From the NCBI GenBank assembly GCA_965248695.1, contig CBDFKD010000002.1:320001-384000 (forward strand): 64,000 bases of DNA. The letters are read 5' to 3'. Shown one piece after another: positions 3,183 through 18,350 of the stretch (position 1 is its first letter; each line of letters opens with the position of its first letter). The stretch is from Acidobacteriota bacterium (GTDB lineage: Bacteria > Acidobacteriota > UBA890 > WLXD01). The notes under the pieces were generated by a model, which had not been told where the DNA came from, searched no databases, and saw only the letters and a list, made by a program, of their open reading frames with translations. The translations under genes and the position numbers were made by a program.

Positions 3183-3200
3183 CAGCGGGCTATCAGCGAA

Positions 3201-4316
3201 TCAGGAGCCGTCCAGCACACCGGGAAGCGGAGGCGCTGCCGCCGGAACCTCGGCGCCGTAGTCGGCACCCAGGAGTGCGGCGACCGTGGCCGCTACCTGC
3301 CCCTGGCTCACCGTCTCGATGTCGGCTCGCTGTCCGAGTGACGGAGTATCCGGGCCGAGCACGGCAATCCAAACGAACTCGGCGCCGACCACATCGACAC
3401 CGTGGGCTCGCCAACCGTCGGGAGCTCCACCGCGTCCATGGTCGGTGGTCACCACCAGCGAGGTCTTGCCGGCGTAGGCGGGCATCGACTGCAGCGTCTC
3501 CCACAGGCGACGCAAGAGCTCGTCCGACCGGTGCGCGGCGTTTAGGTAGTCGTCGTAGCGACGGGCATGCGCCGCCGCGTCGGTCTCGTCGAATGAGATG
3601 TACAGAACACGGGGCTGACGCTTGACCAGGTGCTCCATAGCAGCATGAAACGTGAACCCGTCCAGACGGACATCGGTCGGATGGGGCGTGACGGCCATCA
3701 GATCATTGAGCATCTGCTCGCGCGCCGTCAACGGGTGATCGTCGAGCGGCTCCCAGCCGGAGTTCACCGGGATCCCCGAGCGCTCCTCGTTGAGGATGTA
3801 GGGGAACACCTCCCAGGCAGTGAACGCCGCCACGCGGCCGCGCAGCCCGGCACGGCCGGCGAGCCATTCGAGCACCGTCACGTTCGGATTGGGGACCTTG
3901 TCATTGCTGTCGATGCGATCGTCCGGGAAACCGGTGAGCATCTCGTTGTAGCCCGGGTACGAGAAGACCATTCCGTTGGTCACCACGGCGTCGCTGCCGA
4001 GGTGCCGGTTTCCGAACACCTGTCCGTCCGCGGCAACGACGCTCCAGAAGAACGGCATCAGCGATTGCCGCCGGGCCTCGGGGGTGTCGCGCCAGAACGC
4101 CTGCCGCAGCCCCCCGAGCGCAGTGACCCCACCGGCACGCTCGTCCATCAGCGCCTCGTCGGCCCCGCTGAAGACCTCTTCCCAACGCAGTCCGTCGAGA
4201 GAGACGAGGATCACGTTCTCCGTGTGCGTCTGATTCTGGGCCAGGGCAATGGCGGCGCAGACGCCTATCAGGACAACAGAGGCAACGAGGCTTCGATGGA
4301 CTGTAGTCGTAGTCAT
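3201..4316 (-). CDS. Secreted alkaline phosphatase-superfamily protein
   Basis: Signal peptide; NVILVSLDGLRWEEVF, SYPGYNEMLTG, ETDAAAH, VTTDHGRG metal-binding motifs. Confidence 0.8.
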   Translation of the reverse strand: MTTTTVHRSLVASVVLIGVCAAIALAQNQTHTENVILVSLDGLRWEEVFSGADEALMDERAGGVTALGGLRQAFWRDTPEARRQSLMPFFWSVVAADGQVFGNRHLGSDAVVTNGMVFSYPGYNEMLTGFPDDRIDSNDKVPNPNVTVLEWLAGRAGLRGRVAAFTAWEVFPYILNEERSGIPVNSGWEPLDDHPLTAREQMLNDLMAVTPHPTDVRLDGFTFHAAMEHLVKRQPRVLYISFDETDAAAHARRYDDYLNAAHRSDELLRRLWETLQSMPAYAGKTSLVVTTDHGRGGAPDGWRAHGVDVVGAEFVWIAVLGPDTPSLGQRADIETVSQGQVAATVAALLGADYGAEVPAAAPPLPGVLDGS

Positions 4317-4510
4317 GGGTCCAGGACTCGCTGGGATCGGGGCGGCGCATCAGACCGGCAACAGCAGCCGTTCAAGAGCGGCAGCCTGTCCGACGCGACC
4401 CGCAGAGTCAAAGGCAGTGTTTCAGGCTCGCTGGAGAGGACCCGGGGGCCGAGATACGATGCAGCCGGCACGAGCACAGCAGCCTTTCTTCGGATGCAGG
4501 GAGCGCGACA

Positions 4511-5581
4511 ATGCGACGACGTACGAGCTGGGCACGTCGCTCAGGCACCGCGATTGTGGTCCTTATCCTGACGTTGATCACCACCACCGGCGATGCGCAG
4601 GATGCTTTTCCTGCCGATCCCGGGATGCGCGACGCGGCGCGCGGACTGCTCAGCGCATCGGAGGGCGACCGGCGTGGCTGGGGCATCACCGGGTTCCAGG
4701 ACGAGGAACGCTTCAACTGGGCCTACACCCCGGTGCCGCGCCAGGGGTTCCCGCTGCGGGAGATGACCGAGGCAGAGCGCGAATTCACCTGGGAGCTGGT
4801 CGCCGCGGGGCTCGGCGAGCGCGGCTTGCAGCAGGCCCAGGACATCATCCGGCTCGAGGAGGTGCTGTACGAGCGCTCCGAGCAGTCGGATTTCCGCGAC
4901 CCCGAGAACTACCTGATCTCGGTGTTCGGCGGTCCCGGGAGCCTCGGCACCTGGGGCTGGCGGTTCGAGGGACATCATCTGTCGATCAACTTCACGCTGC
5001 TCGATGGTCGGGTGATCGGAACCACCCCGGCGTTCTTCGGCGGCAACCCGGGCTACGTCGGTGAAGGGCTGCATTCAGGATTGAGACCGTTCGCCGAGGA
5101 GGAGGATCGCGCTCGGTTGTTTCTCCAAAACCTCGACGCGGCACAACGGCGGACGGCGGTTTTCTCCGACACGGCACCGGAGGACGTGCTCACCAGCAAC
5201 TCCAAGCTCGCCAGCCGCCCGACCAGCGCAGGCATCCAGCACGATCAGCTCACCAAGCCGCAGCAGGAAGCGCTCTGGAGCTTGCTGGAGTTGTACGCCG
5301 CGCGACTGGAGACATCGCTGGCAGCCAGCGAGCTGGCGGAAGTGCGCGCCGGCGGGCTCGACGAGCTGCGATTCGCATGGGCCGGCGGCGGCGAGGCGGG
5401 TGAGCCGCACTACTACCGCATTCAAGGTCCGACGTTCGTGGTCGAGTACGACAACACCCAGAACGACGCCAACCACGTCCACACGGTATGGCGGAACTTC
5501 GAGCGCGACTTCGGACGCGACCCGCTGCGGGAACACCTCGCTGCGGCGCATCAGGCTGGCAACCCACACACGCATCGCTGA
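4511..5581 (+). CDS. DUF3500 domain protein (secreted)
   Basis: Signal-like N-terminus; WGWRFEGHHLSINFT, TPAFFGGNP, HYYRIQGPTFVVEYDNTQNDANHVHTVWR. Confidence 0.8.
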   Translation: MRRRTSWARRSGTAIVVLILTLITTTGDAQDAFPADPGMRDAARGLLSASEGDRRGWGITGFQDEERFNWAYTPVPRQGFPLREMTEAEREFTWELVAAGLGERGLQQAQDIIRLEEVLYERSEQSDFRDPENYLISVFGGPGSLGTWGWRFEGHHLSINFTLLDGRVIGTTPAFFGGNPGYVGEGLHSGLRPFAEEEDRARLFLQNLDAAQRRTAVFSDTAPEDVLTSNSKLASRPTSAGIQHDQLTKPQQEALWSLLELYAARLETSLAASELAEVRAGGLDELRFAWAGGGEAGEPHYYRIQGPTFVVEYDNTQNDANHVHTVWRNFERDFGRDPLREHLAAAHQAGNPHTHR

Positions 5582-7007
5582 TCGCGGCCGCGTGCAGATC
5601 ACGCGGCCCGAAACCGATCGGTAGCGGGGCCGTAGGAACCTACGAGCGCTAGACTGGTGTCACCCCCCGTGCGCTCCCTGGAGTGGACCATGGAACGGCT
5701 CTGGAAGGACATCAATTTCGGCCTCCGCATGCTCGTCAAGAGCCCCGGGCTAACGCTGGCCGCGATCGGCTCGTTGGCGCTCGGCATCGGCGCCAACACC
5801 GCGATCTTCACGGTGGTGAACGGCATCTTCTTCCCGCCGCTGCCGATCGAGGACGCATCAGGCGTCTTCAGCTTGTTCACGCTCGACGAGAAGAACCCGG
5901 GGTTCCACGGCGTCTCCTACCCCAACTTCGAGGACTACCGCGATCGGCAGACGGCGCTCGACGAGATTGCCGCCTACCAGTTCGCGCCCATGAGCTACCG
6001 CCGCGAGGACGGCGGCGGCGACGCCACCATCGGGCTGTTAGTCACCGGCAACTACTTCGATCTGTTACGCGTACAGATGCTCCAGGGGCGGTCCTTCGTG
6101 CCGGAGGAAGACCGCACGCCGGGGTCCCATCCCGTCGCCGTAGTGAGCCACGGGTTTTGGCAGCGGCGTACGGCCGGCGATCCGGATCTACTCGGCAAGA
6201 CGATCTTCATCAACCGCGTCGCGTTGACCGTTATCGGCATCGCACCGCCGGATTTCACAGGCACCGACATCGGCATCGCTCCCGAGATCTGGATGCCGAT
6301 GATGATGTACGAGCGCATCTCGACGCAGCCCGGATGGATCGACCTGCGGCGCGGCTTGATCAACAGCGTTCTCGGTCGCCTGGAGACCGGCACCACGCTC
6401 GCCAGCGCCCAGGAGGAGTTCGACGCGATATCGGCGCATCTCGCGTCGGAGCACCCGAACGACAACGCGGGACGGCGCCTGACCCTGATCCCTACGCTGC
6501 AGGCACGCGTGAACCCCAATGTGCGCGACAACTTCGTCCAGGCGCTCGGTTTGATGGTCTTCGTCGTCGGCCTGGTGCTGCTGATCGCCTGCGCCAACGT
6601 CGCCAACCTGTTGCTGTCACGCGCCACCGGTCGCCGTCAGAAGGTGGCGATCAAGCTGGCACTGGGCTCCAGCACCGGCCGTCTGGTGCGTCAACTGCTG
6701 ACCGAGAGCGTTCTGTTGGCGCTCGTGGGTGCCGCATTCGGCCTGCTGGTGGCACGGTGGACCACGGGGCTGCTGGTGCGGTCCATTCCGCCTACCCCGT
6801 TCCCGATCGCGCTGTCGTTCGATCTGAATGGATCGGTGCTCCTCATCACGCTCGGCATCGCCGTCGCTACGGGCCTCGTCTTCGGATTGGCACCGGCGCT
6901 GCAGGCGATGCGGGCCGATGTTCTGGGCGCGCTCAAGAACGAGACTTCCGGCTCGATGGAGCGCCGACCGCCGCTTCGGCCTGCGCAATCTTTTGGCGGT
7001 TATGCAC

Positions 7008-7036
7008 TTGACAAAGGTACCACGAGGGCCTAGTAT
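7008..7036 (+). promoter_or_regulatory. Sigma70-type promoter TTGACA-17 bp-TAGTAT for the transposase/R-M operon; the -35 lies inside IRL
   Basis: TTGACA at 7008-7013, 17-bp spacer, TAGTAT at 7031-7036, ATG at 7046. Confidence 0.7.
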
Positions 7037-7045
7037 GTCCTCATC

Positions 7046-8036
7046 ATGAGCAAGAAAACAACTTCAAAGCACGCGACGCCGAAGACACCACAGGATCTGA
7101 CGCTTGAGCAGATCATTCAGCACTTCTCTACCGACGCCCGAGCCAGGGAGTACCTGGAGGCCGTTCGGTGGCCCGAAGGCCCCTTCTGTCCACATTGCGG
7201 CAACGCCGACTCGGATCGCGTCTACCCGATCAAGGCAAACCCCGAAAAGAAGGTCAGGCCGGGCCTGTACGAGTGCGCCGAGTGCAAGAAGCAGTTCACG
7301 GTTACGGTAGGCACTGTTTTCGAGCGGTCCAAGGTTCCGCTGCGCAAGTGGCTCGTTGCTTGGTACCTTCTCTGTTCGTCCAAGAAAGGGTACTCTGCCG
7401 CCCAACTCCAGCGAGCCCTAGAGCTAGGTAGCTACCGGACTGCATGGTTCATGCTTCATCGGATCAGGTATGCCTTGCGGCACCCCGTGTTCGCCGACAA
7501 GCTCGGCGGGCGTGGCGATGGTGGCGTTGTAGAGGCTGACGAAACCTGGATCGGCGGAGTAAGGCGCGGCAAGGGGCGCGCTTACACCGGCAACAAGACA
7601 GCGGTTGTCAGCGTCGTCGAGCGCGGCGGACGAGTACGGTCATTCCCGGTCAAGCGGGTGACGGGCGAGAACCTGAGCCGCACACTTCACGGGCAGGTTC
7701 ATCCACAAGCCACTCTAATCACCGACGAGCATCGCGGCTACATTGCCCCAGGTCGGCAGTTCCGTGCGCACCAGACCGTCAATCACTCGCAGCGAGAGTA
7801 CGTTCGCGGATCAGTGCACACGAATACGGTTGAGGGGTTCTTTGGCAACCTCAAGCGCGGGATCAACGGTATCTATCACCATGTCGGCAGCCACTATCTG
7901 GCGCAGTATCTAGGTGAGTTCGACTTCCGCTACAACACCAGGCGGCTGACTGACGGAACAGCGCACGATAGCCGGGCTCCAGCAAGTCGACGGCAAGCGA
8001 CTGATGCTCCGGCCGCCGAAGGCCGCCCGCGGCTAG
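7046..8036 (+). CDS. IS1595-family (ISXO2-like DDE) transposase with an apparent +1 frameshift near 7957
   Basis: Zn ribbon CPHC...CAEC; VEADETWIGG, LITDE, VNHS..EYVRG.VHTNTVEGFF, YL.EFDFRYN. The natural-looking C-terminus QRTIAGLQQVDGKRLMLRPPKAARG* is in the +1 frame and ends at TAG 8034-8036. Confidence 0.88.
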
Positions 8037-8867
8037 ATGCCAGCCCGCGAAGTCACCGCCCTGATCGTCCCCCAGGGCAAGATTCTCGACTTCATAGACG
8101 GCAAGCTCCGCAAGGAAACCCCGGAAGAGTACGTCCGCCAAGAGATCGAGAAGTCTCTGGTCCGCGAATACAAGTACCCGCGAGACGAGATCGCGGTGGA
8201 GTTCCGCGTTCGTCTGGGTCGCGCTCCGAAGCGCGCCGACCTCGCAGTGTTTCCAGAGGGCGAGCCGCACAAGCAAGAGAACGTGTTCGCCATCGTCGAA
8301 TGCAAAGCGGCGAACATTTCTCCGAACCATCGCAAGGAAGGCGTCGATCAGCTCAAGAGCTATCTTGCCGCCTGCGTCAACGCTGTCTTCGGGATGTGGA
8401 CGAACGGGCAGGAGAGGTTCTGCTATCGCAAGATCCAGGAAGACAGCAAGATAGCTTTCGCCGAGATTCCAGACATACCGGTCAAAGGCAAATCCATAGA
8501 CGAGGTCGAAAGACCAACTTTCGACGCGCTACGCCCCGCCACCAGCGATTCTCTCCTGTTCACGTTCCGACGATGCCACAATTATATTGCCGGCAACCAA
8601 GGACTCCAGAAGCCCGAAGCCTTCTGGGAGCTGTTGAAGCTGATCTTCTGCAAGATCGAAGACGAACGCTCCAGCGAGATCGACTTTTACACGAGCACTC
8701 CGGGGCGTCAGAGCCTCAACGGCCAACTAAAGGTGAAGGCACGTATCGAGAAGATATTCGCGCGCGTCCGCACGAAATACTCGACGATCTTCAAGCCACA
8801 CTGACCTGACCCCCGAAAACGGATCCGGATGTAATCTCACGATCTGGGTCAAGAACGGGAGGTCAGA

Positions 8868-9146
8868 ATGCCGAGTAAGAGGCACAGCGCCGAGCAGATC
8901 GTACGCAAGCTCCGGGAGGCTGAGGTGGAGCTGGCTCGAGGGGCGACGGTCAAGGATGCCTGCCGCAAGCTAGCAATCACCGAGCACACCTACTACCGGT
9001 GGCGGCGAGAGTACGGCGGACTGAAGCTCAACCAGGCCAGAAAGCTCAAGCAACTGGAGAAGGAGAATGCCCGGCTCAAGAGGCTGGTGGCGGAAAAGGA
9101 ACTCGACCTGTCGATCCTGAAGGAAGTGGCGGAGGGAAACTTCTGA
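8868..9146 (+). CDS. IS3 transposase OrfA (HTH plus leucine zipper)
   Basis: KRHSAEQIVRKLREAE...TYYRWRREYGG...LEKENARLKRLVA; ends ...EGNF. Confidence 0.92.
   Translation: MPSKRHSAEQIVRKLREAEVELARGATVKDACRKLAITEHTYYRWRREYGGLKLNQARKLKQLEKENARLKRLVAEKELDLSILKEVAEGNF
9134..9140 (+). other. Programmed -1 frameshift heptamer G GGA AAC joining OrfA to OrfB
   Basis: X XXY YYZ motif at the orfA/orfB overlap, as expected for IS3-family elements. Confidence 0.75.
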
Positions 9147-10027
9147 GCCCAGCTCGGCGGCGAGAGGCGGTGGCACATGTACGGGGGCGGCTGGGCGTCT
9201 CGGAGAGGCGGGCGTGTCGGGTACTGAAACAACCACGCACGACACACCGGTACGTGCCAAGAGAGCCGCAACAGGAGCAGATTTTGACGGAGCGGATCGT
9301 GGATTTAGCCCGACAGTACGGGCGCTACGGATATCGGAGGGTGACAGCGTTGCTGCGCATGGAGGGCTGGTCCGTGAACCACAAACGAGTGCAGCGTATC
9401 TGGCGGCGCGAAGGGCTGAAAGTACCGAGAAAACAGCCCAAACGAGCACGGCTGTGGCTGAGCGATGGCTCCTGCATCCGGCTGCGCCCACAGCACCGGG
9501 ATCATGTCTGGGCGTATGACTTCCTGCACCACCGGACGCACGACGGTCGGGCTATGAGGCTGCTGACGATCGTCGATGAGTACACACGAGAAAGCCTGGC
9601 GATCCATGTAGCACGGAAGCTCAACTCTGAGGACGTGCTGGAGCAGCTCGGGAGGTTGTTCGTACACCGGGGCATACCTGAGCACATCCGGTCGGATAAC
9701 GGACCAGAGTTCACCGCCGAGGCGGTTCGCGACTGGCTGGGCCGGTTGGGCGTGGGGACGCTGTTCATCGAGCCGGGCTCGCCGTGGGAGAACGGTTACG
9801 TGGAGAGCTTCAACGGCAAGCTACGCGACGAGCTGCTGGATGGAGAGATCTTCTACACGCTCAAGGAGGCAAAGGTTCTGATCGAGAGATGGCGTCAGCA
9901 CTACAACCGCATGCGACCGCACAGCTCGCTGAGCTATCGGCCGCCCGCACCCGAAGCGACGTTGTTGAAGCCGGCTGCGCTCCGCTTCGCCGGCCTCAAC
10001 AACCTCTTGTCAGCACCGAGTTACTGA
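9134..10027 (+). CDS. IS3 transposase OrfB (DDE integrase core), expressed by frameshifting
   Basis: RYGYRR, VWAYDF, IVDEYTRE, IRSDNGPEF, PGSPWENGYVESFNGKLRDE, YN..RPHSSL. Confidence 0.92.
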   Translation, partial: GKLLSPARRREAVAHVRGRLGVSERRACRVLKQPRTTHRYVPREPQQEQILTERIVDLARQYGRYGYRRVTALLRMEGWSVNHKRVQRIWRREGLKVPRKQPKRARLWLSDGSCIRLRPQHRDHVWAYDFLHHRTHDGRAMRLLTIVDEYTRESLAIHVARKLNSEDVLEQLGRLFVHRGIPEHIRSDNGPEFTAEAVRDWLGRLGVGTLFIEPGSPWENGYVESFNGKLRDELLDGEIFYTLKEAKVLIERWRQHYNRMRPHSSLSYRPPAPEATLLKPAALRFAGLNNLLSAPSY

Positions 10028-11189
10028 GATAAGACATGGTACTAACCGCGGGGTCAGGTCAACACGACGAGATCGAGCTCGAGCCTCGGGTACTGGCATA
10101 CATCGTCTCGCAGTTGCAGCCCTGGTCGCTACTTAACAGCGACGTAGATGTAAAGGGCAAAGCCTACGAAGAGATCGTTGGGTCCAATCTTCGCGGCGAT
10201 CGCGGCGAGTTCTTCACCCCCCGCAACATCTGTCAGATGGCGGTTGGGATGCTGGACCCTGGTCCTGCTGACATTGTCCTCGACCCCGCATGCGGCACTG
10301 GCGGTTTTCTGACCATTGCGATGAACCATGTCATTGAGAAGCTCCGCGATGGCGACCGGGGAAAATGGCGCAACGCGGATCGGCCCACAGATCGCGAACA
10401 ACAGGAGCTATATCGAAAGATCCACGAGTACGCTAATGAGCGTATCGTCGGAATCGACATCAACCCCAACCTTGTTAAGGCCGCGAAAATGAACATGGTC
10501 ATGAACAACGATGGTTCAGGTGGTCTGTTTCAGGGCAATGCTCTCGAACATCCCATCACGTGGGGCGAAGCACTCCGGGCTCGTGACTTGATTGGCAATG
10601 TGGATCTGGTCTTCACGAACCCGCCATTCGGATCGAAGATCCCAGTCGACGATCCCGCGATCCTCGAACAATTTGAACTAGCTCACGTGTGGGATTACGA
10701 CGAACCACAGGACACCTACTCGATTCGAGAGCCACGCCAGCTCCAAAAGTCACAGCCGCCAGAGATTCTGTTTGTTGAACGCTGCATCCAGTTCCTGAAG
10801 CCCGGGGGCGGGCGAATGGCGATCGTCTTGCCCGATGGGATACTCGGCGCGCCCGGGTTGGCTTACGTGCGTGAATGGATCTTGGCACAGACGCGCGTGC
10901 TGGCCAGTGTTGACTTGCATCCAGATGCGTTTCAGCCGAAGAACAGCACGCAAACAAGCGTGCTGGTACTGGAGCAGAAGCGTTTCGATGAGATCGAATT
11001 AGAGAGTGCCGTTGGTAAGAAAAACACCTATGACGTATTCATGGCGCTTGCGAACCATGTGGGCCATGACAAGCGCGGAAACACTACCTATGTCCGCGAC
11101 GAAGATGGCAACGAGATCGTCGAGGCCACGAAGGAGAAGGTCCAAGAGGTTCACGAAGGCGTCCCCTGTCTATACAACTGTCGAGACGG

Positions 11190-12593
11190 GAGTTATTTGC
11201 AAATGTTGTGGATCGGTGGATTTGTTCAGGCGGCGTCTTCGCTAGCGATCAGGTGAACTCCATCGACGAATGTGGCGCCCTCGAGTACGAGGGCAGTGAG
11301 GTGAGGAGCGTTGATGCGGCGCCATCGTTGCTGTGCCATCTCCAGGAGCTTGAATGCCATCGTCAGCGCCTTGGTGCGTGAGCCGGCGCCCTTGGTGACG
11401 CGTTGTCTCAGGCGTACGGTGGCGAACGCCGACTCGATCGGGTTGGCCGTGCGCAGATGAACCCAGTGGTCGGCGGGGAAGTCGTAGAACGTCAGCAGCT
11501 TGTCGGAGTCGCGTTGCAACGACGCCACGGCCTTGGAGTACTTGGCGCCGTAGTCGGCTGCGAACCGCGCCATGCCCTCCTGAGCATCCTCGCGCGTTGG
11601 CGCACCGATGATCTCGTGCAGCGCGCGCTTGGCTTTGGCCTGCAGCCGCCTCGGTAGCTTGTCGAGCACGTTGCCAAGCCGATGCACCCAGCATCGTTGC
11701 TCTCGAGTCTGGGGCCATACATCCCGCACCGCCGCCCAGAACCCCAGCGCCCCATCACCCACTGCCACGAGCGGCGCCCGCATGCCTCGACGCTTCAGCT
11801 CCCGGAGCACGAACGCCCAGCTCTCGGTGCTCTCTCGATACCCGTCCTCGACCGCGATGAGCTCCTTGGTTCCGTCCGGCAAAACGCCCAGGATCACCAG
11901 CGTGCACAGCCGATCATCCTCGAGTCGAATGTTGAAGTGCACACCGTCCGCCCACACGTATACGTACTGCTTGGTGGACAGATCCAGCTTCCGGAATGCC
12001 TCGTACTCCGTGCTCCAGGCGTTCGTCAGCCGGCAGATCGCCGATGCCGACAGCCCGCTGGCTTCCTGTCCCAGTAAGATCGGCAGCGCCTCCTTGAAGT
12101 CGCCCGTCGACAGGCCCCGCAGGTACAGCACCGGCAGCACCTCCGCCACCTTCGGCGAGCGCCGCATGTAGGGCGGCAGGATCCGACTGCTGAACCGCTG
12201 CCTCAGTCCCTGCTCGTCGAGCCGCTTGTCGTTGACCCGTGGCGCGGCTACTTGCACCGTCCCGCACCCCAACGTGATCTTGCGTGCGCGAGCCCGACCG
12301 TTGCGTACCACTTGCCGACGGCCGGCTTCATCCAGTTGCCCGGCGTGGCTCTGGATATACTCCTGAACCTCCCACTCCAGTGCTGTTGCCAGCATCTGCA
12401 GCGCGCCCTGCCGGGCGAGCTCATCGACGTCCAGTGTCAGCTGTCCTTCCTCCGCGTCCGATCCACCGATAATCTTGAGCACGGGTGGCGTCTCCTTCCC
12501 GGCCTCCACAGCCGGCTGCTGGTTGTTGATGATCCCAGCGAAGGTTACGCCGCCTTTCTTTTTCCTCCCATCCACAACTTCCGGTTATATCTC
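11190..12593 (-). mobile_element. IS256-family insertion sequence, 1404 bp
   Basis: Imperfect 24-bp IRs (GAGTTATTTGCAAATGTTGTGGAT vs GAGATATAACCGGAAGTTGTGGAT, 17/24); 9-bp TSD TCGAGACGG at 11181-11189 and 12594-12602. Confidence 0.93.
11226..12575 (-). CDS. IS256-family (Mutator-type) transposase
   Basis: VVRNG, LYLRGLSTGDF, YVWADGVH, GDGALGFW, QRCWVH, LRTANPIESAFATVRLR. Confidence 0.93.
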   Translation of the reverse strand: MDGRKKKGGVTFAGIINNQQPAVEAGKETPPVLKIIGGSDAEEGQLTLDVDELARQGALQMLATALEWEVQEYIQSHAGQLDEAGRRQVVRNGRARARKITLGCGTVQVAAPRVNDKRLDEQGLRQRFSSRILPPYMRRSPKVAEVLPVLYLRGLSTGDFKEALPILLGQEASGLSASAICRLTNAWSTEYEAFRKLDLSTKQYVYVWADGVHFNIRLEDDRLCTLVILGVLPDGTKELIAVEDGYRESTESWAFVLRELKRRGMRAPLVAVGDGALGFWAAVRDVWPQTREQRCWVHRLGNVLDKLPRRLQAKAKRALHEIIGAPTREDAQEGMARFAADYGAKYSKAVASLQRDSDKLLTFYDFPADHWVHLRTANPIESAFATVRLRQRVTKGAGSRTKALTMAFKLLEMAQQRWRRINAPHLTALVLEGATFVDGVHLIASEDAA

Positions 12594-12672
12594 TCGAGAC
12601 GGCACAGAAGGTCGTAGACGACAACACCGGACGCATCACAGGAGCGTTCCGTGCTTGGTTAACTGAACAAGA

Positions 12673-14190
12673 ATGACACCTGCATCTACTCCTGAGAGAT
12701 CCGTCCGAGAACGCCTCGCGCCCGAGTGCTTGGCGCTCCCGATCGAGGAGATATGCGGCGGCGCGAGGCGGCTTGACGCCGAGGTGTATCTCACGCCCGG
12801 TTTTCTTGTTCGTCAAGACATCGCGCATGCCAGTCTGCAAGTGACGACCCTCGGAGAATTGGCTTCGATCTGGCAGCCAAGTCGCCTCACTGGAGTCACG
12901 GTTGCGCCCGAACATGGGGAACCGTTCCTGACTGCCACGCAGGTGTTCGACATTTGGCCCAGGCCGCGAAAGTGGCTGGCGGCCAGTCGCACACCGAAGA
13001 TTGAGACGCGATACGTAGAGCCCGGATGGATACTCGTGACCTGTTCCGGTACCGTCGGCAGTTCAATCGTCACGTATTCAGCGCACGCTGGGCTGGTGAT
13101 CTCTCATGACATCCTGCGCGTGCAGCCACGCGACGCCCGGCTTCGTGGGTACATATACGCCTTCCTACGGACGCGGTTCGGCCTCGCGATGATGCGGTCT
13201 AGCCGCTATGGGAACATCATCAAACATCTTGAGGTTGAGCACCTTGATGATCTGCCTATCCCGATACTCGACAACCTGATTGACGACACCGATGCGGACA
13301 TTGGTCGGACGTTTGAAATGCGTGATGAGGCGCACAAGCTTGATCGGTTCGCCTGCGAGCGTTTTGGCCAAGAGGTAGGCGCGCCGGAGCCACCATCGGA
13401 AGAGGGATTCTCCGTGTCCTCGAGCGAGCTGTTTGAATACAGCCGGCGTCTTGATGCTTACACATACAATCCTCAAGCAGAATCGGCGCTTGCCGCACTA
13501 GGGCAAAGTGGGTACGAGACTCAGCCGCTGCGCTCGCTTACTGAAGCTGTTTTCGGCGTCCCGCGTTTCAAGCACGTCTACTTGGATCGAGGCATCCCGT
13601 ATCTTGACAGCGAGCCGTTGTTCAAGATAAATCCGGAGCTTCGCAAGTTCATTCCACCAAGGGCAAAATCCAATGCGGAACGTTACTTCGTAAAGAGCGG
13701 CTGGCTGATGATGGCGTGCTCGGGACAGATCTATGGCCTTAACGGCGGTGTTGTCCTGGCAACCGAACAGCACGAGAATGCGATCATCTCAAACTACGTA
13801 GTGCGGATCATTCCGAATGGCGTTCGGCCAGGTTATCTGTCCGCTGTCCTCAATCACCCTGGACTTGGCCAGCCCTTGCTGCTCCGGTGGGCCTTCGGGA
13901 CAGAGGTTCCGGAAATCGCTCCCGAGGACGTGGCGCTGTTTCCGGTTCTGCGCCTACCAGACGAGGTTGAGAGTGAGATCGCGAATGCAGCAGAACGAGC
14001 GAGCGAGCTACGCATGAAGGCCGACGAGAAAGAGAACGGTGCGGTCGCTCGTCTGGAAGAGGCGCTAGACGCCGAGCTGGAGAAGTCCAAGGGCAAAAAG
14101 AAACATGGACCTCTCCACATCCCTCTCGACTTCGACGAGGCGATGAAGCGCGCCGTCCAAGTACCGGCACCAGACGAGGCCGAAGGCTAA
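12673..14190 (+). CDS. Restriction-modification specificity subunit (HsdS/BcgIB-like, two TRDs) with an extra C-terminal tail
   Basis: Two repeats, each opening with RRLDA and containing GWILVTCSG / GWLMMACSG, then G..I..I....L....IP and a helical spacer; ATGA-coupled to the R-M gene. Confidence 0.8.
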   Translation: MTPASTPERSVRERLAPECLALPIEEICGGARRLDAEVYLTPGFLVRQDIAHASLQVTTLGELASIWQPSRLTGVTVAPEHGEPFLTATQVFDIWPRPRKWLAASRTPKIETRYVEPGWILVTCSGTVGSSIVTYSAHAGLVISHDILRVQPRDARLRGYIYAFLRTRFGLAMMRSSRYGNIIKHLEVEHLDDLPIPILDNLIDDTDADIGRTFEMRDEAHKLDRFACERFGQEVGAPEPPSEEGFSVSSSELFEYSRRLDAYTYNPQAESALAALGQSGYETQPLRSLTEAVFGVPRFKHVYLDRGIPYLDSEPLFKINPELRKFIPPRAKSNAERYFVKSGWLMMACSGQIYGLNGGVVLATEQHENAIISNYVVRIIPNGVRPGYLSAVLNHPGLGQPLLLRWAFGTEVPEIAPEDVALFPVLRLPDEVESEIANAAERASELRMKADEKENGAVARLEEALDAELEKSKGKKKHGPLHIPLDFDEAMKRAVQVPAPDEAEG

Positions 14191-14922
14191 GCAGGGGTCG
14201 TACGGCTCTGTGCTGGTCAAGGATTCGCCCAGCCATACCCTTTGTCAAGTGCATAATCGCCAATCTTTTGGTCATCGGGCAGGTCGCCGTCTCGCTGATG
14301 CTGCTGGTCGGCGCCGGACTGTTCATCCGTAGCATGCAGTCGGCGCGGACCATAGACCCGGGGTTCGATGTCGAGGGCGGGCTGGTCGCCACCATGAACC
14401 TGGGACTCGAGGGCTACAGCGAGGACGACGGCAAGGCGTTCCTGCGGCAGCTTGGCGAGCGTGTCGCTGCGATTCCGGGCGTGCGTGCAGCGACGGTGGC
14501 GCAATCTTTGCCGCTGAGCCTGTTCGGCGCCGGGCTGACCCGCACCACCTTCATCGAAGGCGACGCGGCAGCCGACGAGGAGGACGGGGTGCTCATCGGG
14601 GTCACCAGCATCGGGCTGGGGTTCTTCGACGCTCTCGGTATCAGCATCGTTGACGGGCGCCCGTTCGATGTGCGTATTTCGGTGATGCCGATCGGTTGTT
14701 TCGGTCATCGCGATCACTCGTTTCGGGTGATCGCGATCAGGGCATCGGAGCGAAGCGACGTTGTGTTGGGATGTTAGCGGATCACCTTGGGTGAGTCAGA
14801 AGTAGTAGTAGAGGCGGTGGAGGCTGTGGGGGACGCGAAGCGTCCTCCAAGGAGCGGTGGGAAACGGATGTTTTCCATGGCTCCGGCAGGATCCACAGGT
14901 TGCCGGAGCAGCGCGAGGATGC

Positions 14923-15684
14923 TCATGTGGCTTTGTCCGCATCGCGCAGCTTGGCGGCGGCGGCCGCCTTGCGCAGCGACCGGCCGGTGAGCTTGATCTT
15001 GTAGGCAGCGTGGATGAGCCGGTCGCAGATGGAGTCGGCCACGGTGGCCTCCCCGAGTGCCTGATGCCAGGCAGAGATGGGCAACTGACTGGCGATCAGA
15101 GTCGAGGCGCGTTCATGGCGATCTTCGATCACCTCGAGGATGTCGCGCCGTTCCATGTCGTTGAGCGGCGTAAGCAACCAGTCATCGATCACCAACAAGT
15201 TGGTTCTGGCGAGTCGGTTCATCAGACGGGTGTAGGAGCCGTCGCCACGGGCGACGGCGAGTTGGTGAGGGAACCGGGCGGCGCGCACGTACAATGCCGT
15301 GAACCCAGATCGGCACGCCCTGTGCGCCAGTGCGCAGGCCAGGAACGTCTTGCCGGTGCCGGTGGGTCCGGTGATCAGCAGGTTCAGGTTCTGGCGCAAC
15401 CACTCACACGATCCCAGCGACAGCACCACCTGCCGGTCCAGCCCGCGGGATGCCTTGAAGTCGACATCTTCCATGCAAGCGGCGACGCGGAGTTTGGCGC
15501 GTTGGAGCCGGCGAGTGAGCTTACGCCGCTCGCGTGCGGTGTACTCGGCCTCGATCATCATGCCGACCCGATCCTCGAACGGTAGATCGGCGTACTGGCT
15601 CGTGGACAGCTGCAACTCGAACAGCTCGGCCATCGCCCCCATCTTCATGGCCAGCATCTTGTCGATCGTCGGTTGCCTCAGCAT
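14923..15684 (-). CDS. istB: IS21 helper ATPase IstB
   Basis: Walker A GPTGTGKT, LLVIDDW, LIASQLP, ADSICDRL; overlaps the istA stop. Confidence 0.95.
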   Translation of the reverse strand: MLRQPTIDKMLAMKMGAMAELFELQLSTSQYADLPFEDRVGMMIEAEYTARERRKLTRRLQRAKLRVAACMEDVDFKASRGLDRQVVLSLGSCEWLRQNLNLLITGPTGTGKTFLACALAHRACRSGFTALYVRAARFPHQLAVARGDGSYTRLMNRLARTNLLVIDDWLLTPLNDMERRDILEVIEDRHERASTLIASQLPISAWHQALGEATVADSICDRLIHAAYKIKLTGRSLRKAAAAAKLRDADKAT

Positions 15685-17225
15685 GAGCTGGACTCGGCGT
15701 AGTAATCAGCACCGCGGATGTTCTCGTGGACTGGCACTGCGGGAGTTCGGTGCTGTTGCGCGGGCTGCCGATCCAGGCCCGAGGAGAGGATGTTCTTGAT
15801 CGTGCCGTAACGGCACGATCCGAGGGTCTCGGCGCGCGCGCTCGCTGCCTCCAGTCGTTCCGATCCGTAGCGCTTGCTCAAGCGCATGATCCCCAAACAG
15901 GAGCGATACCCCTGTTCCGGATGAGGGAAGGTGGCCATGATCTGCGCCACCACCCGAGCGGTGGCAGGACCGGTGCGCCCGGCCCAGCCGATCAGACGCG
16001 ACGGGGTGCATTGCGCATGCGCCCGATGCGAAGCGGGCATGTGCTCGGCACAAGTGGAGTGGCTGCCTTTGCCCACGAGACGGCGGTGGCCGCCAACTCG
16101 GTTGCCCTTGAAGTACAGCTCCACGGTCAGAGCGGTGAAGCGTGCCTCCACCTGCTGATGAACCAACTGATAGGGCACCGAGTACCAGTTGCCGTCAACC
16201 TGCACGTGGTAGTCGATGTTGACCGTGCAGCGGAGCCACTCGGCCATCTCATAGGCGGCTGACGGCAACGGCTGCAGCAGTGGCCGGTCCAGACGCTCGT
16301 ACAACTGTCGTCGGGATGCGCCGAGCTGCTGCATGGGCTTGTCGTTGATGATCTCGAGTTGCTCGCGGATCGCACCGTTCAGCTCGGCCAAGCTGAAGAA
16401 GGTGCGGTTGCGCAATACGGCCAGGATCCAACGCTGCGCCAGTAGCACGGAGCTCTCCACCTTGGCCTTGTCGCGAGGCTTGCCGGCGCGCGTCGGGATC
16501 ACCGCCGCACCGTAGTGCTCGGCCATCTCGGCGTAGCTGCGGTTCACGGTCGGCTCATACCGGCAGGCCCGAGTAACGCCGCTCTTGAGGTTGTCCGGAA
16601 CGAGGATCTCAGCACTCCCGCCGAAGTACTCCAACATCCGCACATGCGATCCGATCCACGAGGCCAGATCCTGGCCAGCGCTTGCCTCGGCGTACACGTA
16701 GGAGCTGGCGCCGAGCACCCCGACGAACAACTCGACGGTACGGGCATCACCGCTGTGGCGGTCAACGACGCTCGGTCGCTTGCCGGAGTAGTCCACGAAG
16801 ATCTTGTGGCCGGCGCGGTGCACCTGCCGCATCGATGGGGACAGCTTGCGCCGGAAGCGTCGGTATCGCTCGCAGAACTGCGTGTAGCGATATCCGTCAG
16901 GGTGATCCTCCAGGTACTCGTGCCACAGCAGTTGTAGCGTCACCCCGGGGCGCCGCAGCTCCCGGTGAACCCAGGCCACATCCGGCGACGGGCGCGGGTT
17001 GCTCGGTGGCGCCGGCGCTCTGAACAGCTTCCCCTCCAGCGCGATGTCATCAAGCTCTGCCGGCAGCGGCCAGCTCAGCCCGGCCGCCGCGGCGCGCTGC
17101 AGGTAGTCGCTCACGGTCGAACTGCTCACGCCACACGCGCGGGCGATCTGGCGGTGCGGTAGCCCTTGGAACTTCAGCCGCAGGATCTGTCGAACTTGTC
17201 TCATCGGTAGCCTCTTGGTTGCCAT
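15678..17225 (-). CDS. istA: IS21 transposase IstA
   Basis: N-terminal HTH, FVDYSG, VPDNLKSGV, PRDKAKVE, YSVPY, HENIRGADYY. Confidence 0.95.
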   Translation of the reverse strand: MATKRLPMRQVRQILRLKFQGLPHRQIARACGVSSSTVSDYLQRAAAAGLSWPLPAELDDIALEGKLFRAPAPPSNPRPSPDVAWVHRELRRPGVTLQLLWHEYLEDHPDGYRYTQFCERYRRFRRKLSPSMRQVHRAGHKIFVDYSGKRPSVVDRHSGDARTVELFVGVLGASSYVYAEASAGQDLASWIGSHVRMLEYFGGSAEILVPDNLKSGVTRACRYEPTVNRSYAEMAEHYGAAVIPTRAGKPRDKAKVESSVLLAQRWILAVLRNRTFFSLAELNGAIREQLEIINDKPMQQLGASRRQLYERLDRPLLQPLPSAAYEMAEWLRCTVNIDYHVQVDGNWYSVPYQLVHQQVEARFTALTVELYFKGNRVGGHRRLVGKGSHSTCAEHMPASHRAHAQCTPSRLIGWAGRTGPATARVVAQIMATFPHPEQGYRSCLGIMRLSKRYGSERLEAASARAETLGSCRYGTIKNILSSGLDRQPAQQHRTPAVPVHENIRGADYYAESSSC

Positions 17226-18350
17226 CCATCGCTCCTCCTGGCGTTAGGAGGCGCCATGGTGCCGCACTTGCTACCGATGGATCCCTGCTCTCAGATCCTC
17301 GCGATCGGCTCCGAAATGAGCGATCGCGATGGTCCGAAACCAGTGATCGGCATCAACCGAAATCCGTGATCGCGATAAACCGAAACGGGCGATCGGGATG
17401 CTCCGAAATACGCAGATGTCACGGACAACCCCGACAGTGTGCGCGCGGCGATCATCAACGAGGTGATGGCCGACACTTTCTGGCCCGGCGAGAGCCCGAT
17501 CGGGCAGCGGTTCATGTTCCACGGCCAGATCGATCGGCCGCTTACCGTCGTCGGCGTGGCCAGCTACGCGAAGGTGTCGACGCTGGGCGAGGACCCCACG
17601 CCGCTGGTGTACATGCCCATCGAGCAGGAGTACTCCGGCACGATGTTGCTGATGTCCCGCACCGAGGGCGACCCGCTGGCGCTCGCCGATGCCGTGCGGC
17701 GTGAGATCCGCGCTCTCGATCCGGAGATGCCGATCTTCGGGATCACGACGCTCGGCGATCAGGTGGACGCGTCGCTCTTCCCCACCCGTATCGGCGCGGG
17801 CATGCTCGGGGTGTTCGGTGCGCTCGGCCTGACGCTCGCGGCGATCGGCCTGTACGGGGTAATGAACTACTCGGTGGCTCGGCGCACCCGCGAGATCGGC
17901 ATTCGCATGGCACTCGGTGCCAACTCGACCGGGGTAATGCGGTTGGTGGTCCAGCACGCGCTGCTGCTGGTGGCCGTCGGCTTGATCGTCGGGATCGGCC
18001 TGGCGGCTTTGATGGGTCGGCAGATGGCAAGCATGCTGTACGGCATCAGCGGCACCGACCTGTTCGCCTTCGGCGGCACCTCGCTGATGTTGTTGCTGGT
18101 CGCCAGCGTCGCCAGTCTCGTGCCGGCGTTGCGCGCCACGCGCGTCGATCCGGTCCGCGCCCTGAAGTTCGAGTAGCCGGCCTACGTTTTCCTGACGTAT
18201 CGCATCTTTTACGATGCTAAGAACGGTCATAGAGTGCTGCTGAGGCCGCAATTGGCCGCAGCTGACCGAAAAGTGTTGCTTCGTATCTCCGCGCTTCCCT
18301 AGACTCGATTCTGGCTGGTTGAGCCGGCCGCGAGCGCCTCCCCATGCGCA

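Follow-up and report, generated by a model that had tools for sequence, protein, structure and literature searches.

Known systems resembling the locus

Passenger-carrying elements of the IS1595 family have already been published, with inverted repeats (IRs) of about 25 bp and an 8-bp target site duplication (TSD) (PMC5704250). The examples described there, tISCpe8 and MTnSag1/tISSag10, resemble the element of our window (the whole stretch of 64,000 nucleotides of an Acidobacteriota contig analysed here) in having an IS1595 DDE transposase, IRs of similar length, an 8-bp duplication and internal passengers. However, they carry a single resistance gene, whereas the window element carries a 3.5-kb restriction-modification (R-M) pair; within its lineage, R-M types are exchanged, and a C-terminal tail together with a RelE-type gene is often present as well. 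Another counterpart, likened to ours by its description, is the unit of Neisseria gonorrhoeae NCCP11945 (Furuta, Abe and Kobayashi 2010, PMC2853133, Fig. 11b). Bounded by 26-bp IRs and an 8-bp TSD, it holds genes for a Type IIG RM protein, for S and for a transposase-like protein, and a relative has the corresponding site empty; IRs, TSD, empty site and RM+S are all shared with the window element. As presented in that figure, its RM gene is N-terminally truncated and its transposase is decayed and assigned to no family; in our case, the mobiliser can be named (IS1595) and full-length, intact sisters exist. In the introduction of the same article, the 2009 paper on IS1595 is listed with others that describe IS-flanked R-M or solitary M genes. 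With both a passenger-carrying IS1595 group (PMC5704250) and an IR/TSD-bounded IIG unit (PMC2853133) on record, the view taken in the preliminary description of this DNA, that the locus is the best candidate for an undescribed system, is not supported.

As for the cargo, BsaXI and BcgI have the same organization: a fused nuclease-methyltransferase, a separate TRD1-CR1-TRD2-CR2 subunit and no ATP motor. The similarity to BsaXI is distant (17–20% identity, TM 0.39–0.49), and BsaXI RM has 916 aa against the 652 aa of the cargo RM. MADS is an eight-gene operon, mad1–8, whose methylation falls on the two strands of a bipartite motif; in the MADS system tested, defence needs mad2–4 and mad6–8 (bioRxiv 10.1101/2023.03.30.534895). 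MAD2 and MAD5 are the closest full-length profiles of our RM and S, both scoring below the family cut-offs, but the cargo consists of two adjacent genes with an intact nuclease motif and has no mad1, 3, 4, 6, 7 or 8. R-M guardians such as PrrC and PARIS cause arrest upon R-M inhibition (PMC12707154). Sister elements of the window element recall these guardians and RelBE, having a RelE-family gene directly 3' of the R-M genes (the window element is without one). They differ in that the R-M protein itself would carry the presumed antitoxin at its C-terminus, a layout that a coarse literature search did not return. Finally, R-M and toxin-antitoxin modules are frequent cargo of Tn7-like transposons (PMC8649781); those are multi-protein and far larger, while the lineage described here has one transposase and stays below 5.4 kb.

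An IS1595-family transposon inserted in a permease gene

We consider it highly probable that the locus is, as a whole, a passenger-carrying IS1595 transposon (tIS) with RM+S cargo, which inserted in a permease gene and is now dead. Its terminal repeats, IRL (6995..7017, plus strand) and IRR (14239..14261, minus strand, located by inverted-repeat comparison), agree in 22 of 23 bases and rank as the sole near-perfect long inverted repeat within 5500–15800. They are directly abutted by two identical copies of AATCTTTT (6987..6994 and 14262..14269); among the lengths from 6 to 11 that were tried, only 8 gave a match. Excision of two nested insertion sequences (ISs), along with one duplication of each, leaves an element of 4,590 bp, about 97% of which is coding. 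A promoter, TTGACA-17-TAGTAT, begins within IRL and points inward (−35 box at 7008–7013, −10 ending at 7036); the motif scan found one such match with 0.3 expected. The ends, the unit length, the promoter and the near absence of spare DNA given in the preliminary description were thus all reproduced.

The first gene, on the plus strand (7046..8036), encodes an IS1595-family DDE transposase with a Zn ribbon. It scores 201.5 bits against NF033547 (cut-off 75), also matches PF12762 and PF12760, and contains the residues D165, D227 and E263, invariant across 43 aligned homologues. The family assignment proposed earlier therefore holds, the IRs and the 8-bp TSD being in accord with it; the ends of the element may resemble those of the ISNwi1 group. 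Neither further IR copies (with up to 5 mismatches allowed) nor other copies of the element or MITEs were found in the 5.9-Mb genome, and a strict finder detected no IR plus TSD around its four more distant IS1595 transposases.

The target is a MacB/FtsX-type ABC permease gene (5' part at 5690..6994, plus strand), which resumes at 14262–14671 and 17415–18177. It has a frameshift of its own near 6958 and is interrupted again by an IS21 element at about 14672–17414. In four relatives the permease is empty and open, and the G003 allele, 97–98% identical, contains a single copy of the 8-mer. In addition, genome G007 from another genus carries an intact 4,587-bp sister at an unrelated site, with its own TSD, GAAGAAAC, and the same TAG/ATG junction; identity to the window element is 86% for the transposase, 82–86% for RM and 61% for S. 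Two more complete RM+S elements with exact TSDs are found at loci L103 and L165.

These data bear directly on a reading in which the R-M genes form a resident island beside a solitary IS, the IRs and the 8-bp repeat being coincidental. Although 76 of the 82 RM+S homologues do occur without IS1595, the empty alleles with one 8-mer copy, and the same gene set between IRs but with different TSDs in G007, L103 and L165, refute the resident island and make the whole reading virtually inconceivable. Of the things that the preliminary description proposed to look for, both an empty allele in related genomes and further IR-bounded elements with this gene set turned up, with swapped cargo elsewhere in the lineage, and the combination of empty alleles and a second insertion site supports delivery of one unit in a single DDE transposition. 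A tight RM–S operon behind the IRL promoter thus lies, together with a single DDE transposase gene, between 23-bp IRs flanked by an 8-bp duplication, and this unit entered the permease gene. Among 26 genomes of the class, a close transposase occurs only in G000 and G007, and the element is single-copy in both.

The restriction-modification cargo

Two cargo genes lie between the IRs, and the R-M pair is indeed the only cargo; there is neither space nor an open reading frame for an ATP-dependent motor subunit. The RM gene now lies in three parts on the plus strand. The first (8037..8801) encodes an HSDR_N_2 PD-(D/E)xK nuclease domain and a helical connector, the second (10062..11188) an N6-adenine methyltransferase with motifs I and IV (NPPF), and the third (12594..12676) the 3' end, where, in the original frame, the stop codon and the start of S share the bases ATGA. 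Profile search recovered HSDR_N_2 and N6_Mtase in one chain of an intact homologue of 652 aa. The nuclease residues E30, D68, E88 and K90 together with the QxxxY motif are invariant in 62 of 62 RM homologues and present in the window copy as well (with Q105 and Y109); they match the catalytic E/D/ExK set of BsaXI, E73/D90/E105/K107 (PMC11997821). By both sequence and fold, the best PDB match of RM is BsaXI RM (fold search E 6.5e-26), while its best full-length profile match is MAD2, with a score of 652.5 bits, which is below the cut-off of 720 (NCBIfam, PADLOC).

The specificity subunit S (12673..14190, plus strand) is an intact protein of 505 aa with a TRD1-helix-TRD2-helix arrangement supported by profile and fold. 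Its AlphaFold model (pLDDT 88) has long helices at 200–235 and 430–473; the top fold match is BsaXI S (E 8e-16), followed by Type I HsdS, and the best full-length profile is MAD5, with a score of 283.9 bits, which is below the cut-off of 400. The C-terminal ~31 residues of S (14095..14190) correspond to the small terminal ORF of these IS1595 elements, fused in frame to S, a feature conserved in G007, where 15 of 27 compared codons are the same, 10 differ synonymously and 2 non-synonymously.

The nuclease, methyltransferase and TRD matches bear out the BcgI/BsaXI layout named in the preliminary description. We therefore provisionally place the cargo in the Type IIB RM+S group of BcgI and BsaXI, a group whose formal definition is biochemical; cleavage on the two sides of the site is what distinguishes IIB from IIG, and either may apply. 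Homology and fold suggest that RM and S would assemble as (RM)2S, like BsaXI, that the two TRDs would recognize a bipartite site whose adenines are methylated on both strands in a SAM-dependent manner, and that unmethylated DNA would be cut near the site with no need for ATP. If so, a single jump would impose a new pattern of methylation on the host and raise a barrier against foreign DNA.

An alternative is that the cargo is a methylase module only, like MAD2 and MAD5 within MADS, and changes the methylome with no restriction unless further genes are supplied. The best full-length matches of the two proteins are MAD2 and MAD5, and in MADS defence does depend on six further genes (bioRxiv 10.1101/2023.03.30.534895). 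On the other hand, the nuclease set is complete in every homologue, while the only MAD2 proteins seen above the cut-off, two from a single locus (L208), are without the catalytic Glu; moreover, the element is devoid of mad3/4/6/7/8-like genes, and S directly follows RM. We thus regard a methylase-only cargo as decidedly unlikely and continue to favour a restricting RM+S pair. The intact G007 copy, with two genes and an unbroken nuclease motif, makes a relative of the MADS core available for study and so bears on the origin of MADS.

The gene pair itself is more widespread than the element. S directly follows RM in 74 of 82 RM loci, the other 8 loci ending within ~180 bases. A transposase is present in 6 of the 82, a lower bound given that many contigs are short, which indicates that the RM+S pair is not an IS-specific system. 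RM matches with E<=1e-100 occur in 4 of 401 genomes of the phylum, and a plasmid collection yielded 8 RM relatives below 60% identity and 13 RelE relatives below 45%. At 4.6 kb and with one transposase, the element might represent a minimal route by which BsaXI- or MADS-core-like specificities cross genera and phyla.

Nested insertions and frameshifts

The window copy has been interrupted twice: by an IS3-family element of 1,260 bp (8802..10061, plus strand, 4-bp duplication) and by an IS256-family element of 1,405 bp (11189..12593, minus strand, 8-bp duplication). Both nested ISs are real, as had been proposed, each having its own duplication and, respectively, 42 and 16 full-length genome copies at >=99%. 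Two contig joints leading from the IS3 end to the IS256 start were also encountered; they are short-sided and most simply represent other copies of these repeats.

Two frameshifts in the element, both missed in the preliminary description, complicate the picture. The one near 7958 cuts off the conserved C-terminal ~26 residues of the transposase, placing them and the TAG/ATG junction in another frame; this frame is intact in G007. The second, near 11155–11160 in RM, means that the ATGA overlap with S is present only in the original frame. The gene layout described earlier is hence correct for the original frames and not for the DNA as it now reads. Likewise, the "complete" R-M cassette fits the ancestral unit and not the window copy with its two ISs and shifted RM, and the minimal self-mobile cassette did move as a whole unit, although its transposase and RM are broken here.

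It could be argued that both frameshifts are assembly errors, with the transposase intact and the unit still mobile. The shifts in the transposase, RM and permease are each one extra base at or beside a short run, which is typical of long-read error, and the sequencing runs compared may be the source sample itself. Against this, 0 gaps were seen at the transposase shift (contigs of X1, X2 and X3) and at the RM shift (X1 and X3), all from one sample of one study, and disrupted genes and IS copies abound throughout the genome. We find such errors unlikely. Judged from its sequence, the window copy is dead and non-functional, and two host ISs and two frameshifts would have inactivated it after its arrival.

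A lineage with exchangeable cargo and a putative guard module

Among GTDB loci of the transposase lineage, an IR pair was found in 53 of 80, and 43 of these 53 have an exact 8-bp TSD; the elements span 1.8–5.4 kb and their cargo varies. Four R-M types have been exchanged through one cargo slot, while the ends and a terminal micro-ORF were kept. Many sisters share the order IRL, transposase, R-M with a C-terminal tail, RelE, micro-ORF, IRR. The conserved tail of ~40 aa lies immediately 5' of a RelE-type toxin gene in 22 loci and, with the exception of L199, where it stands alone, extends the last R-M protein (21 of 22). Its carriers include S of RM+S pairs, an ~810-aa single chain, R-M-S fusions of 888 and 933 aa, and subunits of 324–366 aa; the fusion thus occurs on unrelated R-M cargoes and in two separate branches of one RM+S family.

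The RelE-type proteins exceed the PF05016 cut-off in 6 of 6 cases tested, and all 8 PDB matches are RelE-type or toxin-like. Neither RelB profiles nor solved antitoxins matched the tail significantly, and among 148 there was one weak Unstab_antitox match. None of its start codons is conserved in 20 ORFs, and in L188 it has none whatever. The micro-ORF matched nothing in Pfam, NCBIfam or PDB and is disfavoured as an antitoxin because 11 loci have it but no RelE, and 4 tail+RelE loci have no micro-ORF match.

By its position directly 5' of RelE, the tail is a candidate tethered antitoxin, or the toxin-neutralising part of one, in a putative "guarded R-M" of the sister elements. The RelE toxin would be kept in check only while synthesis and folding of the R-M protein proceed and the protein is undisturbed; phage anti-restriction proteins, proteolysis or cassette loss would release it. 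If the tail is an antitoxin, covalent tethering would link R-M to abortive infection or addiction in the sisters, which would be a new way of doing so. It is tempting, if speculative, to see in the window element a stripped-down representative of an IS1595 lineage so far undescribed, which would serve as a self-mobile chassis of this kind, a view that we advance as possible and not as probable. In a midpoint-rooted FastTree tree of transposases, the window element and G007, both without tail and RelE, fall inside a 25-row clade with support 99, in which 14 rows have tail and RelE, with L020 as sister. Such a topology suggests that the window/G007 branch might have lost both, leaving S of the window element fused to the micro-ORF.

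The R-M genes, and RelE in the cousins, might also serve the element mainly as an addiction load, with anti-phage benefit secondary. RelE-type genes in the 22 tail-bearing loci would suit such a role, as would other toxin-antitoxin parts common in the same slot (PIN in 5 elements, MazF, SocA). Yet the host lineage survived the loss of RM to two ISs in the window copy, the window/G007 branch manages without RelE, and PD-Lambda-5, a defence-only cargo, occupies the same slot. Moreover, in a fused RM, cutting and marking are lost together, which would weaken post-segregational killing. Addiction as the main role thus appears doubtful to us, and we retain delivery of an R-M specificity as the preferred reading.

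What is newly found, at the level of sequence comparison, is the R-M-swapping IS1595 lineage with the tail/RelE module of its sister elements. A coarse literature search, with subscription journals outside it, returned no paper on IS1595 with R-M/antitoxin fusions. This module is the less ordinary part compared with the R-M pair, which is mostly found outside IS1595. The cargo slot might also be a source of candidate defence genes, as 96 of the 116 cargo ORFs scanned in the lineage belong to no Pfam family.

Structure and decay of the window element

The anatomy given in the preliminary description stood up well. Terminal inverted repeats (IRs) at 6995–7017 (IRL) and 14239–14261 (IRR) share 22 of 23 bases, the same 8-mer flanks both, and among duplication lengths of 6–11 bp only 8 matches. 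These ends may resemble those of the ISNwi1 group. Two nested insertions, an IS3-family element at 8802–10061 (4-bp duplication; 42 full-length copies in the genome) and an IS256-family element at 11189–12593 (8-bp duplication; 16 full-length copies), leave on in silico excision a 4590-bp unit with 51 non-coding bases at its left end and 71 at its right. A sigma-70-like promoter begins inside IRL, and the element is single-copy in its genome, G000. The announced complete restriction–modification (R-M) system does comprise two genes, a fused nuclease/N6-methyltransferase (RM) and a specificity subunit with two TRDs (S), but frameshifts had gone unnoticed in the transposase (near 7958), RM (near 11155–11160) and the target permease (near 6958). 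Those in the transposase and RM both recur, with zero gaps, in contigs from public runs, all of a single sample that may be the assembly's own source. Because of the frameshifts and nested insertions, the copy in the window can no longer restrict and has probably also lost the ability to move itself. It is well supported that we are dealing with an IS1595 passenger-carrying element (tIS) bearing a Type IIB-like RM+S cargo, the window copy being a fossil.

G000 shows a strong recent IS expansion, its 42 IS3 and 16 IS256 full-length copies standing at no less than 99% and many being mutually nested. On G000:C2 there are four more distant IS1595 transposases (1583809–1584684, 2291099–2291920, and from 1395072 and 2735161), of which two are broken by an IS256 or IS3 insertion; the first two may be followed by small cargo ORFs.

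As a class, such an element is ordinary. Passenger-carrying IS1595 elements, their IRs 25 bp and their TSDs 8 bp long, have already been described (PMC5704250), and R-M is a common cargo of Tn7-like elements (PMC8649781). Furuta 2010 (PMC2853133) presents an IR-bounded unit with an 8-bp TSD in which a truncated IIG RM and an S gene accompany a transposase in decay; for R-M or M genes flanked by ISs it cites a 2009 paper on IS1595. Like ours, that unit has terminal IRs, an 8-bp TSD and RM plus S; it differs in its truncated RM and decayed transposase. The suggestion of an undescribed system is not supported. Among the papers listed by literature searches, none dealt with this IS1595 lineage or with R-M/antitoxin fusions; what rises above the ordinary is an intact, testable sister element, the connection with the MADS core and the way tail and RelE are arranged in the lineage.

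Evidence of movement

The element moved as a transposon. The permease is open across the insertion site in four relatives, and in the related genome G003 it is 97–98% identical, with an 833-codon frame and a single copy of the 8-mer; the proposed search for an empty allele was thus successful. The same kind of unit was also found, as had been envisaged, in G007, a genome of the same family and another genus. There an intact element of 4587 bp lies within another IS at an unrelated site; its IRs are near-identical, it has an 8-bp TSD of its own, and the TAG/ATG junction is the same. Its RM is 652 aa long and its S 509 aa. Identity to the window element is 86% for the transposase, 86% and 82% for the RM parts and 61% for S (TRD1 71%, TRD2 54%), and so, judging from sequence, the two enzymes may have different recognition sites.

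The window holds two adjacent MacB/FtsX-type ABC permease genes (774–3182 and 5690–18177), the first apparently intact. An IS21-family element at about 14672–17414 (istA/istB, minus strand) breaks the second gene once more, the gene continuing at about 17415–18177. Both permeases have many paralogues: of 40 candidates scored in the genome, 35 matched.

The transposase lineage and its cargo slot

An IR pair was found at 53 of 80 GTDB transposase loci, with an exact 8-bp TSD in 43 of the 53 and sizes of 1.8–5.4 kb. Cargo ORFs were scanned with Pfam (116 of 138, 22 likely spurious ones being dropped) and PADLOC (63), and 20 of the 116 matched. N6-methyltransferase R-M proteins occur in the slot in L020, L021, L023 and L045; other matches include PD-Lambda-5 (L057), a weak DpnI match, PIN toxins (five elements), MazF and SocA. 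The lineage thus swaps its cargo.

Some individual loci deserve comment. In the IS1595 element at L057:7951-11822, which has an exact TSD, PD-Lambda-5 is complete, both A and B being present. In L030, L034, L054, L077 and L089, an unannotated 130–310-aa ORF accompanies a PIN-domain gene, making these candidate toxin–antitoxin or defence pairs. L045:7913-13265 is a 5.35-kb IS1595 element with a TSD; the terminal micro-ORF described below directly follows its transposase, and its cargo, an R-M-S fusion of 867 aa, is encoded on the other strand. Finally, a transposase on a 152-kb contig (P0001) is 92% identical to that of the window and hence nearer than G007.

The R-M pair itself is not tied to IS1595. 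RM was found in 82 loci (80 metagenomic, two genomes), with S directly behind in 74, the other eight ending there. An IS1595 transposase is present at at least six of the 82, a lower bound because contigs are short, and one further locus has IRR alone; L103 (4995 bp) and L165 (5249 bp) are complete elements with exact TSDs. Integrases, resolvases and plasmid Rep genes are also among the genes next to the pair, as is an IS1-family transposase in the case of L100. IS1595-borne RM copies occupy five separate places in an 85-row tree, and a forced grouping of tail-bearing copies was rejected (p-AU 2e-6; 19 hand-picked rows, the group being named after the first tree). In L100 (43-900, minus; 1007-4536, plus), the pair lies beside a divergent IS1-family transposase and S reads into an IS1-type basic micro-ORF, which suggests IS1-family carriers as well.

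Relationship of the cargo to BsaXI and MADS

RM carries HSDR_N_2 and N6_Mtase domains. E30, D68, E88, K90, Q105, Y109 and NPPF are invariant in all 62 aligned homologues (picked from 120 listed), and the window RM retains the nuclease residues. The top PDB sequence match is RM.BsaXI (E 2e-23), and AlphaFold models of RM and S best match BsaXI RM (E 6.5e-26) and BsaXI S (E 8e-16), S forming two domains with a long helix after each. These fold matches stand at only 17–20% identity. The nuclease residues are of the type that BsaXI uses (E73, D90, E105 and K107; PMC11997821). The BcgI-like layout initially proposed, a fused nuclease–methyltransferase with a separate two-TRD subunit, is supported.

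The best profile matches, full-length and below cut-off, are MAD2 (RM) and MAD5 (S), the methyltransferase and specificity subunit of the defence system MADS. The latter has eight genes, of which mad2-4 and mad6-8 are required, and methylates TCAGN4TCC on both strands (bioRxiv 10.1101/2023.03.30.534895), whereas our cargo has two genes and an intact nuclease motif. Two MAD2 proteins above cut-off, from the single locus L208, are without the catalytic Glu. We read the cargo as a two-gene relative of the MADS core that has kept its nuclease, is putatively self-sufficient and would work like a Type IIB/IIG enzyme, and we consider it likely to restrict.

At L208:4706-10193 (G786:C136), the two tandem MAD2-like genes, with degenerate nuclease motifs, precede a single S gene, and the three may form a heterodimeric M1M2S module.

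The tail/RelE layout of sister elements

In L020, L021 and L023 (single-chain R-M of about 815 aa) and in L103, L105, L164 and L165 (RM+S), a conserved tail of about 40 residues, an acidic helix, forms the C-terminus of the final R-M protein. Behind it come a RelE/ParE-family gene, a micro-ORF of about 50 codons and IRR. A toxin-anchored scan yielded 21 virus-classified contigs, in 14 of which the ORF directly upstream is a tail-bearing R-M protein of one of four types (about 810 aa, nine; 888/933 aa, two; RM+S, one; 324–366 aa, two). Exact TSDs occur in four of the eight scan contigs having both IRs. The tail forms a separate ORF of 68 aa in L199. For three distant toxins among the 21, the upstream partner is of the usual kind, and two of these partners weakly match RelB profiles. 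Across 185 loci, with profiles built partly from these loci and the viral set selected on RelE, tail and RelE co-occur in 22, the tail stands alone in two (once at a contig end, once beside a broken RelE), RelE lacks the tail in four and the micro-ORF is alone in 11.

The window element has neither tail nor RelE. Its transposase nests (FastTree) in a 25-row clade with 14 tail+RelE elements, beside L020, and deletion of both in the window branch is the simplest reading, one towards which we lean. In the window and G007, S continues in frame into the micro-ORF (27 codons: 10 synonymous versus two non-synonymous changes). The micro-ORF gave no database match; with low confidence, it might be an element-level regulator or a dimerising peptide.

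Does the layout represent a true guarded R-M? The tail may resemble RelB C-termini. Its profile gave 294 matches among 1.84 billion representatives; of the best 150, 96 are of 110 aa or less, several end S or methyltransferase domains and one weakly matches Unstab_antitox. Comparison of the tail with known antitoxins gave no significant match, and no conserved internal start codon for it was found in tail-bearing ORFs. Among the 120 nearest S homologues listed, eight end in the tail and five in the micro-ORF (window and G007 included); judged by eye, five more end in an IS1-type micro-ORF. In compact elements S is thus often fused to the next reading frame, whatever that may be, and the tail fusion could be a by-product of packing; a guarded system seems to us rather unlikely. 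In four elements, L188, L189, L191 and L196, the RelE-type toxin itself runs in frame into the terminal micro-ORF.
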